From: an uncultured delta proteobacterium
GTDB taxonomy: Bacteria > Myxococcota_A > Polyangia > Polyangiales > Polyangiaceae
NCBI GenBank assembly: GCA_963782055.1
Contig: CAWAIF010000003.1
Coordinates: forward strand, 6,695,948 to 6,759,947
Direction of reading: 5' to 3'
Length of the DNA stretch: 64,000 nt
The notes beneath the pieces were generated by a model. That model ran no database searches, was not told where the DNA came from, and worked only from the letters and a program-made list of their open reading frames with translations. The position numbers and the translations under genes were made by a program. Every line of letters begins with the position of its first letter. Position 1 is the first letter of the stretch. Below, one piece after another: positions 33,661 to 36,994 of this stretch.

Positions 33661-34659
33661 TCACTCGTAGCGGCGGAGCTTTCGCCACAGCGTATTGCGA
33701 CCGATGCCGAGCGCTCGCGCGGCCTCGACGTGGGAGCCGCCGCACGCCTCCAGGACGCGCAGAACATGCTCGCGCTCCACGTCCGCCAGGGGCCGCAGCG
33801 GGCCGCCCCTGTCCCGCCGGGCTCGCGCCGGCGCCGCCAGCAGGTCCTCGGGCAGGTGGTCGACCTCGATGACCCCGCCCTCGGCCAGCGCGACGCCGTG
33901 CTTGACGGCGTTCTGCAGCTCGCGGACGTTGCCCGGCCACGCGTACGCCTGGAGCAGCCGCGCGGCGGCGGGGGAGAGCCAGAGGTCCTCGCGGTGCTCC
34001 TCGGCGAGGAACATCTTCACCAGCGGGACGATGTCCTCGCGCCGCTCCCTCAGCGGCGGCACGCGCAGCGTCAGGACCTTCAGGCGAAAGAGCAGGTCCT
34101 GGCGGAACAGGCCGTCGGCGGCGCGCTGCGTGAGGTCGCGATGCGTCGCGCACACGATCCGCACGTCCACGGCGAAGGCGCGCGTGTCGCCGACGCGCCG
34201 GACCTCGCCGTCCTGCAAGGCTCGGAGCAGCTTCGCCTGGAGAGGCAGGGGCATCTCCCCCATCTCGTCCAGGAAGAGGGTGCCTCCCTCGGCCGCCTCG
34301 AACAGGCCGGTCTTCGCGGTCGCCGCGCCGGTGAACGCGCCGCGCGCGTGCCCGAACAGCTCCGACTCGAGCAGCTCCGCCGGCAGCGCCGCGACGTTCA
34401 CGGCCACGAAGGGTCTGTCGGCGCGCGGGCCGCTCTCGTGCAGCGCGCGAGCGACGACCTCCTTGCCCGAACCGCTCTCGCCCAGGATCATCACCGGCGC
34501 CTCGGCCGCGGCGAACCGCGCCGCGCGGCGCAGGACGGCCTGCATCGACGGCCCTTCGGCGATGATGCACGACGAACGCTTGACCCCCTGGATCACCGAG
34601 CACAGGCCACAGACGGCGCAGCGCCCTGCGGCGGGCTTCCGGGTGGTCGAGCGTTCCAT
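33661..34659 (-). CDS. Sigma-54-dependent transcriptional activator with a short 4-Cys N-terminus and no receiver or GAF domain
   Basis: AAA+ sigma-54 interaction domain ('GESGSGKE', 'GAFTGA', 'ESELFGH', R-finger region) and a C-terminal Fis-type HTH. Only ~30 aa precede the AAA+ domain, including 'CAVCGLC...SSC'. Confidence 0.85.
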
Positions 34660-34660
34660 G

Positions 34661-34675
34661 GCGTTCCAGTTTGGA
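34661..34675. promoter_or_regulatory. Inverted repeat GTTCCA-N3-TGGAAC, candidate enhancer site for the adjacent sigma-54 activator
   Basis: Six-bp arms that are perfectly complementary, about 45 bp upstream of the putative -24/-12 element and immediately upstream of the activator start codon. Confidence 0.4.
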
Positions 34676-34718
34676 ACATAGGTCCGGCGCGTCCCGCGGA
34701 CAAGCCGGCGGTGTGCGC

Positions 34719-34734
34719 TGGTACGGGGGCTGCA
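34719..34734 (+). promoter_or_regulatory. Putative sigma-54 (-24/-12) promoter TGGTACGGGGGCTGCA upstream of ytfE
   Basis: GG and GC dinucleotides have the spacing of the TGGCACG-N4-TTGCW consensus. The element ends ~22 nt before the ytfE ATG. Confidence 0.45.
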
Positions 34735-34756
34735 GATGCCACGAGCGGAGGCAAGC

Positions 34757-35458
34757 ATGCCCGTCATCGACCGAACCGCCAGTGTCGCCCAGATCGCGCT
34801 CGATCATCCGCCGTGCGCGATCGTCTTCCGCAACCACCGCATCGACTTCTGCTGCCGGGGCGGGCTCACCGTCGAGGAGGCGTGCGCGGGCAAGGCCATC
34901 GACACCGAGGCCGTCTTCGTCGAGCTCGACCGGGCCGTCCAGGAGCGTGCCGCGCCGGCCTTCGACCCGCGAGGGCTCGCGACGCCCGAGCTCGTCGCGC
35001 ACATCGTCGGGCGCCACCACGCGTACCTGCGCAAGGCCTTGCCCTTCGCCGAGCAGGTCGCGCGCAAGGTGGGCCGCGTGCACGGAGAGCACAACCCGAA
35101 GCTCCCGGCCCTGGCAGACCTCGTCGCCGAGCTGCGTGAGACGCTGGAGCCTCACCTGGACCAGGAGGAGCGCGCGCTCTTCCCGGCGCTCACCGGCCAG
35201 GCGCCGGACCCGGCGCGCGTCGCCGGCGAGCTGCGCGCGATGCACGACGACCACCTGCGCGTGGGCGAGATGCTCACCTGCATGCGCACGCTCGCGGACG
35301 ACTACGCGTGTCCCGACTGGGCGTGCGGGAGCTACCGGGCGCTGATGAGCGAGCTCGAGGCCATCGAGCTGGACACGCTGCGGCACGTCCACCTCGAGAA
35401 CCACGTGCTCATGCCTCGCTTCTCCACTCACACAGGCGAGGTCAACGCCAATGCCTAG
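34757..35458 (+). CDS. ytfE: Iron-sulfur cluster repair di-iron protein (RIC/YtfE/ScdA family)
   Basis: N-terminal ScdA_N motif 'RIDFCCRGG', then a hemerythrin-like domain with His/Glu ligands ('HHAYLR', 'HNPKL', 'MHDDHL', 'LENHVL'). Confidence 0.8.
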
Positions 35459-36602
35459 GTCGAAGGTCGCGGTCCTCAGGTGCAAGCCGGCGACGGTCCT
35501 CGCCGACATCGAGCGGCTCTGCGAGCTCGCGGGGATGAAGGAGGCCCTCGCGCCCGGCAACACGACCATCCTCAAGGACAACATCTCCTGGCACTACCCC
35601 TTCCCCGGCGCGAACACGACGCCCTGGCAGATGGAGGGGACCATCCTCGCGCTGAGGAACGCCGGGCTCGGCGACGTGACGTGCGTGCAGAACAAGACGG
35701 TGGTGACCAACGCCTTCAAGGGCGAGGACCTCAACCACTACGTGCCGCTCTTCGAGAAGCACGGCGTGCCGGTGCGCTACAACTTCAAGGAGACCGACAT
35801 GACGTGGGTCGAGCACCGGCCCAGGGCGAAGATGCACGTCCTCGACCGCGTCTTCCCGGAGGGGATCCGCGTGCCCGACTACTTCTTCGGCAAGAACGTG
35901 GTGCACCTCCCGACGGTGAAGTGTCACATCTACACGACGACCACTGGCGCCATGAAGAACGCCTTCGGCGGCCTGCTCGCGACCAAGCGCCACTACACCC
36001 ACTCCTGGATCCATCGCACGCTGGTGGACCTGCTCGCCATCCAGAAGGAGATCCACACCGGCATCTTCGCGGTGATGGACGGCACGACGTGCGGCAACGG
36101 CCCGGGCCCGCGCACCATGATCCCGGTGGTGAAGGACTTCATGCTCGCGAGCGCCGACCAGGTCGCCATCGACGCCGTGGCCGCGAAGATGATGGGCTTC
36201 GACCCGATGAAGCTCGAGTACATCAAGGTCGCGCACGACGACGGGCTCGGCGTCGGCGACCCGCGCGACATCGAGATCGTCGGGGACGACGTGAGCGGCG
36301 AGAGCTGGGGATTCAGCGTCGGCGACAACCTGGCGAGCCACGCGGGCGACCTGCTGTGGTTCGGGCCGCTCAAGCGCATCCAGAAGCTCTTCTTCCACAC
36401 GCCGCTCGTGAACGTCTTCATCTTCGGCAGCGAGGCCTACCACGACTACTACCGCTGGCCGCTGAAGGACCGGCGGACGTTCGAGACGTGGGCGCGCCAG
36501 ACGAAGTGGGGCCGGCTGTTCCAGTCGTACGCCGGCGGGCCCACCTCGGGCGAGGCTGGCGTGCGCCTTGCACCGCAGGGAGACGCTGGAGGTGACGCAT
36601 GA
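35451..36602 (+). CDS. DUF362-family protein
   Basis: 383 aa. 8-nt overlap with the ytfE 3' end. Conserved 'VKCHIYTTTTGAMKNAFGG' region typical of DUF362. Confidence 0.5.
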   Translation: MPRSKVAVLRCKPATVLADIERLCELAGMKEALAPGNTTILKDNISWHYPFPGANTTPWQMEGTILALRNAGLGDVTCVQNKTVVTNAFKGEDLNHYVPLFEKHGVPVRYNFKETDMTWVEHRPRAKMHVLDRVFPEGIRVPDYFFGKNVVHLPTVKCHIYTTTTGAMKNAFGGLLATKRHYTHSWIHRTLVDLLAIQKEIHTGIFAVMDGTTCGNGPGPRTMIPVVKDFMLASADQVAIDAVAAKMMGFDPMKLEYIKVAHDDGLGVGDPRDIEIVGDDVSGESWGFSVGDNLASHAGDLLWFGPLKRIQKLFFHTPLVNVFIFGSEAYHDYYRWPLKDRRTFETWARQTKWGRLFQSYAGGPTSGEAGVRLAPQGDAGGDA

Positions 36603-36994
36603 TCCGGCTCAAGCGCGCGTACGAACCGGCCGACCAGGGCGACGGGCACCGCGTCCTCGTGGAGCGGCTGTGGCCGCGCGGCCTGCGCAAGGAGCAGGCG
36701 CACTTTGACGAGTGGCTCAAGGGGATCGCCCCGAGCGACGCGCTCCGCAAGTGGTTCCATCAAGACGCGGACAGGTGGTCGGAGTTCCGGCGGCGCTACG
36801 TGCGCGAGCTCCACGCGGAGCCGGCGAAGCCGGTGCTGGAGCAACTCGCCCGCCGCGCGAAGCGGGAGCCGGTCACCCTCGTCTACGGGGCGCACGACAC
36901 CGAGCACAACAGCGCCGTGGTCCTGGCAAAGGAGCTCGAGCGCCGCGGGGCACGGGTGATGCATCGCCCCCACGCACAGCAGGAGGCACCATGA
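36599..36994 (+). CDS. DUF488 (YeaO-like) protein
   Basis: ATGA overlap with the previous gene. 131 aa with the 'RLWPRG' motif typical of DUF488. Confidence 0.5.
   Translation: MIRLKRAYEPADQGDGHRVLVERLWPRGLRKEQAHFDEWLKGIAPSDALRKWFHQDADRWSEFRRRYVRELHAEPAKPVLEQLARRAKREPVTLVYGAHDTEHNSAVVLAKELERRGARVMHRPHAQQEAP

Follow-up and report, generated by a model that had tools for sequence, protein, structure and literature searches.

How Proteobacteria adjust the expression of ric, nor and nos genes to nitric oxide (NO) is well understood: NorR, NsrR and DNR/NnrR exert this control. To our knowledge, such control has hardly been charted in Myxococcota, Acidobacteriota and Planctomycetota. NorR is a sigma-54 activator encoded divergently from NO-defence genes, including the gene for the iron-centre repair protein RIC, in the E. 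coli norVW and R. eutropha norR-norAB systems (PMC1274295, PMC2831303, PMC9268430); in the latter it activates ric, norA being the RIC gene (PMC9268430). It autoregulates from sites near its own gene, and its enhancer comprises three GT-N7-AC sites (PMC1274295). Here we describe a locus of similar design in 64,000 nucleotides of DNA from an uncultured delta proteobacterium of the Polyangiaceae (GenBank assembly GCA_963782055.1, contig CAWAIF010000003.1, positions 6,695,948 to 6,759,947), a stretch that we refer to as the window and to which all unqualified coordinates apply. The gene in question (33661-34659, minus strand) encodes a sigma-54 activator and is divergent from an operon that begins with a RIC gene. 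Comparison with related loci indicates that activator, RIC, predicted enhancer and predicted promoter form a real and conserved module. We give about an even chance to the view that this is a divergent regulator-target module resembling NorR with ric-nor but run by another family of enhancer-binding proteins, in which an NO signal is read by a short CxxC[G/R]L tip.

The activator is a sigma-54 enhancer-binding protein of 332 amino acids, in which a tip of 31 residues at the N-terminus is followed by an AAA+ domain and then a Fis-type helix-turn-helix (HTH). A Pfam search of the protein assigns Sigma54_activat (PF00158, 4.3e-67) to residues 32-198, AAA_lid_14 to residues 204-280 and HTH_8 to residues 291-331 (33667-33789, minus strand). 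The same search finds no domain in residues 1-31, and hence no GAF domain, which agrees with the short, GAF-less layout of ~30 residues ahead of the AAA+ domain that a first-pass annotation of the window had proposed. In an alignment of 68 sequences, the Walker A motif GESGSGKE (G60-E67; 34459-34482, minus strand), the DE motif of Walker B and the GAFTGA loop that contacts sigma-54 (G107-A112; 34324-34341, minus strand) are all invariant. Judged by its Walker A motif, GAFTGA loop and Fis-type HTH, the predicted protein is a complete and genuine sigma-54 enhancer-binding protein. We place its start at ATG 34659 in preference to ATG 34767, which lies upstream in the mechanically called open reading frame, because homologs begin with MER or MEH and because in-frame stop codons lie just upstream in two related loci (L001 and L081; loci are designated by L numbers throughout).

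The likeness to NorR lies in the circuit and not in the protein; the first-pass annotation had likewise set the layout apart from the sensor of NorR. Whereas NorR carries a GAF domain with a mononuclear non-haem iron site, the window activator has only the 31-residue tip with a CxxC motif. It scores 295.7 bits against the NorR model NF003451, for which the cutoff is 476, and it fits the models of NtrC and NifA with higher scores. The myxobacterial peroxide-sensing activator PexR was considered as a match and rejected, since it has a GAF domain.

The activator and RIC genes are separated by a divergent region of 97 bp. RIC (34757-35458, plus strand) is a YtfE-family di-iron protein with ScdA_N (PF04405) and Hemerythrin (PF01814) domains, scoring 208 bits against TIGR03652 (cutoff 204.7), and its ATG at 34757 is preceded by GGAGG. 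It is followed on the same strand by genes for a DUF362 protein (35451-36602) and a DUF488 protein (36599-36994), both assigned with Pfam; RIC and DUF362 share 8 nt at their junction, and DUF362 and DUF488 share 4 nt. Because of these overlaps, we regard RIC-DUF362-DUF488 as one translationally coupled operon, the ytfE(RIC) operon of the first-pass annotation. The predicted enhancer (34651-34679) consists of a direct half-site GTTCCA (34653-34658) that overlaps the activator start codon, 4 nt, a second GTTCCA (34663-34668), GTT, and an inverted TGGAAC (34672-34677). The palindrome GTTCCA-GTT-TGGAAC at 34663-34677 has no other match in the window at two mismatches or fewer. A predicted sigma-54 -24/-12 promoter, TGGTACG-GGGG-CTGCA (TGGTACGGGGGCTGCA; 34719-34734, plus strand), faces the RIC operon, 41 nt past the palindrome and 22 nt ahead of the RIC ATG. 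Both DNA elements had been noticed in the first pass, the palindrome at the activator start codon and the promoter ~45 bp from it, and apart from the slightly shorter distance they stand as described. Multiple enhancer half-sites upstream of a -24/-12 promoter, and sites near the activator's own gene, are likewise features of NorR, but the motif is GTTCCA-N4-GTTCCA-N3-TGGAAC and not GT-N7-AC.

A scan of 32000-37600 found no sigma-70 promoters or terminators. Two further sigma-54-like elements are present in the window: TGGCGTGCGCCTTGCA at 36557-36572 (plus strand), inside the end of the DUF362 gene and 27 nt before the DUF488 start, and TGGCACGCGCTATGCT at 17088-17103 (minus strand). The number of such extra elements is at chance level for the window, and neither has an enhancer nearby.

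Related loci were detected with a DNA pattern that joins the CxxC[G/R]L codons to the Walker A motif, which matched exactly the 8 known family loci among 86. In metagenomes, this pattern retrieved 61 loci, 57 of which are true in-frame genes. A protein-based scan of contigs was set aside, as it returned mostly generic activators, with L001 and L002 the only true members. After merging at 95% identity, 54 distinct loci remained, 44 of them with adequate upstream flank. In 27 of these 44, the gene directly divergent from the activator is RIC, and in 32 RIC occurs somewhere in the examined locus; eight further loci carry qNOR, DUF1858/DUF2249 or hemerythrin genes. As a control for specificity, we looked at 78 loci of ordinary enhancer-binding proteins, and RIC was present in none. 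At 50% identity the family is covered by three representatives; a search with representatives gave 58-64% identity, compared with ~55% for generic activators. We conclude from these sequence comparisons that the predicted family is widespread in Myxococcota, Acidobacteriota and Planctomycetota.

Conservation of the DNA elements was scored in 22 distinct loci with a closely divergent RIC gene, with random 260-nt windows from the same contigs as controls. Promoters were scored out of 12 for their match to TGGCACG-N4-TTGCW (the GG-N10-GC element), and palindromes out of 12 for their match to GTTCCA-N3-TGGAAC. A promoter that scores at least 10/12, lies between the genes and faces RIC is found in 15 of the 22 loci but in only 0.6% of control windows; at a threshold of at least 9/12, the corresponding values are 21 of 22 and 4.9%. 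The palindrome reaches at least 10/12 in 19 of 22 loci, compared with 0.3% of control windows. When the enhancers are aligned on the promoter, their layout is constant: a direct half-site, a second ~10 bp on, an inverted one after three bases and, sometimes, a fourth, GGAAC. The three-half-site arrangement of the window enhancer recurs in L081, L082, L086, L093, L108, L114, L127 and others. Of the 54 distinct loci, 46 have the palindrome at a distance of 37-115 nt upstream of their first cysteine codon, irrespective of the neighbouring gene. Hence, it marks the 5' end of the activator's own gene, which implies autoregulation.

Additional enhancer and promoter pairs occur ahead of RIC in L147 and ahead of DUF1858/DUF2249 operons in L131 and L099, and in L001 RIC and a hemerythrin-DUF488-COX1-like operon share one enhancer. 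The enhancer-like palindrome of L001 (2190-2370 of that locus) is located between RIC on the minus strand and the hemerythrin-DUF488-COX1-like operon on the plus strand, with sigma-54-type promoters in both directions, and is a candidate bidirectional enhancer.

Sequence constraint on the tip is confined to its CxxC motif. The window protein has four N-terminal cysteines, C14-x2-C17-G-L-C20-x10-C31 (34567-34620, minus strand), that is, CxxCxxC-x10-C; the first-pass annotation had counted x9, a trivial miscount, and had taken all four cysteines as the defining sensor. A whole-protein search gave 120 best homologs, which are 63-83% identical to the window protein and annotated generically; 102 of them have a complete N-terminus. 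The CxxC formed by C14 and C17 is present in all 102, followed by GL in 94, RL in 4, GM in 2 and QL in 1. Ahead of the Walker A motif, the 68-sequence alignment contains no invariant position besides C14 and C17; conservation reaches at least 90% at G18 and L19, and the rest of the tip is variable. The CxxC codons vary synonymously between TGC and TGT across homologs, and therefore the segment is coding. Leaving aside the AAA+ and HTH domains, the only element conserved in a family-specific manner is thus the CxxC[G/R]L knuckle, which precedes the AAA+ domain by 12 residues. The other two cysteines are lineage-specific: C20 is found only in a few of the closest relatives, most close relatives carrying C21 instead, and C31 is restricted to the nearest clade. 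Ortholog conservation of the cysteines, which the first pass had itself set as a test, therefore holds for C14 and C17 and fails for C20 and C31.

These counts bear directly on the literal four-cysteine model, in which a ferredoxin-like CxxCxxC...C iron-sulfur (Fe-S) cluster in each monomer would be the NO sensor. The window protein does possess C14, C17, C20 and C31, 17 of 101 homologs have at least four N-terminal cysteines, and the subclade with CRL in place of CGL keeps four conserved cysteines as C-x11-CxxCRL-x9-C. However, half of the homologs (50 of 101) have exactly two cysteines in the whole N-terminal region, and in most C20 and C31 are missing. Many homologs have an extra upstream pair, giving CxxC-x4-CxxCGL or CxCxxCGL. 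The positions of the additional cysteines differ from clade to clade, so that they cannot make up a shared four-ligand site. With only C14 and C17 invariant, a single-subunit ferredoxin-like cluster cannot be the mechanism of the family, and we assign this model the smallest chance of all those weighed here. Thus, the first-pass annotation is partly supported: it was right on the circuit and on its novelty, and wrong on which cysteines matter.

Apparent exceptions to CxxC conservation trace to annotation. Among the 120 best homologs, 18 are called from an internal methionine (PAMQ...), so that the motif is lost. Short cysteine-less homologs were considered as counter-examples and rejected: in L148 a full MER...CAVCGLCC...C N-terminus lies in frame upstream of the called start (5880-6000 of that locus), and in L149 an assembly gap removes the N-terminal motif (5125-5348). 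Automated gene calls therefore systematically hide the CxxC motif, 15% of homolog calls starting too late and deleting it, which is a lesson for annotation more generally.

A related effect concerns the extreme N-terminus. The GTTCCAT half-sites of the window enhancer, when reverse-complemented, spell the start of the activator's coding sequence, ATG GAA CGC (Met-Glu-Arg; 34651-34668). The tripeptide ME[R/H/Q] occurs within 30 residues upstream of the CxxC in 70 of 102 homologs and is present twice (MERMEH) in 12. Given this coincidence and recurrence, the N-terminal tripeptide is probably constrained at the level of DNA and not of protein.

Structural searches place the tip outside anything solved. 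The closest solved relative is the AAA+/DNA-binding region of ZraR, with an alignment that starts at residue 31; fold and sequence matches in the PDB begin at about residue 30, and none of the solved structures covers the tip. No curated NCBIfam or Pfam model spans it either. An AlphaFold2 (AF2) monomer model has a mean predicted local distance difference test score (pLDDT) of 90, with confident AAA+ and HTH domains; residues 11-30, at pLDDT ~80, are modelled with moderate confidence as a knuckle followed by a short hairpin. Two cysteines elsewhere in the protein are conserved at 90% or above in the family: C170, in a strand (~34150-34152), and C306, in the LEACGGS segment of the HTH (~33742-33744). 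The residues aligned with them in ZraR are Ala and Thr.

Cysteines ahead of an AAA+ domain have been implicated in sensing in other enhancer-binding proteins. OrpR has a PAS domain with three cysteines and a [4Fe-4S] cluster (PMC8359166), and VnfA/AnfA have a GAF domain with an N-terminal cysteine motif (PMC9542535). In contrast to these, where the cysteines lie inside folded PAS or GAF domains and provide at least three conserved ligands, the window family has only two invariant cysteines and no domain. The regulons differ too, OrpR and VnfA serving orp genes and alternative nitrogenases, and the window family being associated with RIC, nor and nos genes. Neither the full-text-searchable literature, including a 2022 review of ric regulation (subscription-only papers fall outside such a search), nor the curated models yielded a description of the family, in keeping with the first-pass suggestion that it was undescribed.

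Across dozens of genomes of soil bacteria, the gene neighbourhoods point to NO defence and denitrification. In Anaeromyxobacter sp. K, the activator is divergent from RIC-hemerythrin, as it is in L148, where it is also convergent with a DUF2249/DUF1858/COX1-like cluster. In metagenome contig L082 it is divergent from RIC-hemerythrin-DUF362, with qNOR and DUF488 downstream, and the DUF362 gene of this RIC operon is 83% identical to that of the window; DUF488 also occurs in L001. In a metagenome-assembled genome of Planctomycetes (L086) the activator is divergent from RIC, and on the contig that carries P0114 it is divergent from RIC-DUF6448-qNOR-DUF438/hemerythrin/PAS-DUF1858/DUF2249. In Myxococcales 68-20 (L083-L085) it adjoins hemerythrin and DUF2249. 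Single-domain hemerythrins recur in L001, L081, L082, L083, L092, L117, L118 and L148. In two loci of the CRL subclade, L087 and L103, the activator is divergent from clade II nosZ-nosD, and the region in front of nosZ (~4700-4960 in L087 and ~4370-4530 in L103) has a CGGTACG-N4-TTGCT promoter match together with GTTTCA-type repeats, features suggesting that in these organisms nitrous-oxide reductase is under the control of sigma-54. By gene context, then, the targets would be NO detoxification and repair genes (RIC, qNOR, hemerythrin, DUF2249), as they are for NorR. The repertoire ric/dnrN, norB and nosZ is also that of NsrR, DNR/NnrR and HcpR (PMC1274295, PMC9268430); those regulators are Rrf2 or CRP/FNR proteins acting at sigma-70 promoters, whereas the window protein is an AAA+ activator at predicted sigma-54 promoters.

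From its gene order and DNA elements, the activator very probably switches on the RIC operon in a sigma-54-dependent manner. It would bind the enhancer through its Fis-type HTH and oligomerise into a ring, and ATP hydrolysis would then open the sigma-54 promoter of RIC-DUF362-DUF488. Because the enhancer covers its own start codon, the activator would probably also limit its own expression. We infer that the signal would be NO or nitrosative stress, arising during denitrification, because the genes of the presumed regulon are RIC, qNOR, nosZ, hemerythrins and DUF1858/DUF2249. The most speculative step is that this signal would be read by the CxxC[G/R]L knuckle. Most likely, the site would be completed between two subunits (two plus two cysteines), which we favour because half of the family has only two cysteines, or else with nearby, variable N-terminal histidines or cysteines. 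Such a site might hold an Fe-S cluster, or a rubredoxin-like or zinc-hook-like thiolate centre, and would lock paired AAA+ domains in an inactive state; once the centre was nitrosylated or lost, the released subunits would be able to assemble into the active ring. In its fullest form, this proposal makes CxxC[G/R]L the smallest known input module of a sigma-54 activator, forming an inter-subunit Fe-S or metal-thiolate centre that NO destroys, and makes the proteins a new NO-sensor family controlling RIC, qNOR and, in one subclade, clade II nosZ. We advance that full form tentatively, as a possibility well short of an even chance.

Several observations tell against the proposal. Two cysteines alone cannot hold a cluster, and CxxCG is also a frequent form of structural zinc knuckle. 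Since oxidative stress, too, elicits a response from RIC proteins, a redox signal could take the place of NO. RIC is not the divergent neighbour in 17 of the 44 adequately flanked loci, 5 of which have RIC elsewhere in the locus. No rpoN gene is present in the 64-kb window. Within that window, moreover, each DNA motif alone occurs at chance level, 61/100 and 43/100 shuffles equalling the observed counts; the significance of the palindrome and promoter comes from their conservation across loci and not from their frequency in the window.

The small size of the tip also invites comparison with PspF and HrpR/HrpS, which are likewise short, essentially AAA+ plus HTH, and divergent from their target operon. 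By analogy, the activator might be intrinsically active and held off in trans by a co-encoded partner, namely RIC, a DUF1858/ScdA_N protein or the single-domain hemerythrin; the di-iron site of the hemerythrin would then be the true NO receptor, and the CxxC a structural zinc site or a docking point. The topology is that of pspF/pspA, with a short activator divergent from an operon whose first product could inhibit it, a ScdA_N/DUF1858-type protein (RIC or DUF1858-DUF2249) or a hemerythrin is encoded near almost every well-flanked locus, and 31 residues are very few for an autonomous sensor. However, there is no universal partner gene, and none of these candidates is present in the examined DNA of L103, L087, L107 and L122. 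In contrast to PspF and HrpR/HrpS, moreover, the window activator has a conserved cysteine knuckle before the AAA+ domain, with no folded domain there, and strict invariance of two cysteines is seen more often in ligand or redox sites than in docking peptides. We found no PspA- or HrpV-like inhibitor, and the pspF models score below cutoff (250 versus 443). We therefore regard control by a partner as unlikely, though it is the alternative that we take most seriously.

A different use of the same two cysteines would be a thiol-disulfide switch, in which a metal-free CxxC dithiol is oxidised by peroxide, oxygen or disulfide stress and the module answers oxidative damage to iron centres. CxxC is a classic redox-active motif. 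The ric genes of several bacteria are induced by oxidative stress (PMC9268430), and in myxobacteria peroxide is already sensed by one enhancer-binding protein, PexR (PMC12754779). The recurrent neighbours of the family, however, are qNOR, nosZ and the denitrification-associated DUF2249/DUF1858 genes, and not catalases or peroxiredoxins. Furthermore, the conserved glycine after the second cysteine gives CxxCG, a signature of rubredoxins and zinc knuckles and not of the thioredoxin fold. On this evidence a thiol switch is improbable, and we prefer the metal-thiolate or Fe-S reading of the knuckle set out above.

Immediately downstream of the activator and on its strand is a gene for a hemerythrin-domain protein (33026-33646, minus strand; Pfam Hemerythrin 1.7e-18), the hemerythrin-like gene seen in the first pass, and 36 nt past it one for a CRP/FNR-family regulator with cNMP_binding and HTH_Crp_2 domains in Pfam (32273-32989, minus strand). 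Activator, hemerythrin and CRP/FNR genes are codirectional, with gaps of 14 and 36 nt, and may form a three-gene regulatory operon that joins two types of regulator. This arrangement raises the alternative that the activator is a sensorless amplifier, its abundance being set by another regulator such as the neighbouring CRP/FNR protein and its cysteines being structural. Some enhancer-binding proteins are controlled by abundance alone, and a CRP/FNR gene lies in the same string here and upstream of the activator in L139. A CRP/FNR neighbour is found, however, in only 2 of 54 loci, and the absolute conservation of the CxxC would be left unexplained; an unregulated amplifier is accordingly very improbable.

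The activator-hemerythrin-CRP/FNR string sits between a clade II nos cluster and the RIC operon. The nos cluster comprises nosZ (25310-27508), then nosD/F/L/Y-like genes and a cytochrome c gene, and the other side of the wider window, which has a GC content of 71%, holds a cluster of molybdopterin oxidoreductase, 4Fe-4S, Rieske and DUF6755 genes. The frame of the molybdopterin oxidoreductase (37488-40790, minus strand) has no stop until 37488 and continues across the 4Fe-4S and Rieske genes. Six consecutive G residues (~38583-38588) stand just before GGATGAGC, and a seventh would restore the common ATGA arrangement, in which stop and start codons overlap, at the junction with the 4Fe-4S gene. 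The read-through is likely to be either a homopolymer assembly error or a genuine frameshift.

Taken together, the data point to an undescribed kind of NO-linked regulator, a NorR-like circuit with an unprecedentedly minimal input. Myxococcota, Acidobacteriota and Planctomycetota are abundant in soil, and among their members are consumers of nitrous oxide (N2O) with clade II nosZ; the family described here is a candidate regulator of their ric, nor and nos genes, and its defined binding site and promoter could be used to predict regulons from metagenomes. If the proposed mechanism is true, an AAA+ activator would be gated by a two-cysteine tip instead of a sensory domain, which would make it a compact, testable system and possibly a minimal NO or redox biosensor part.

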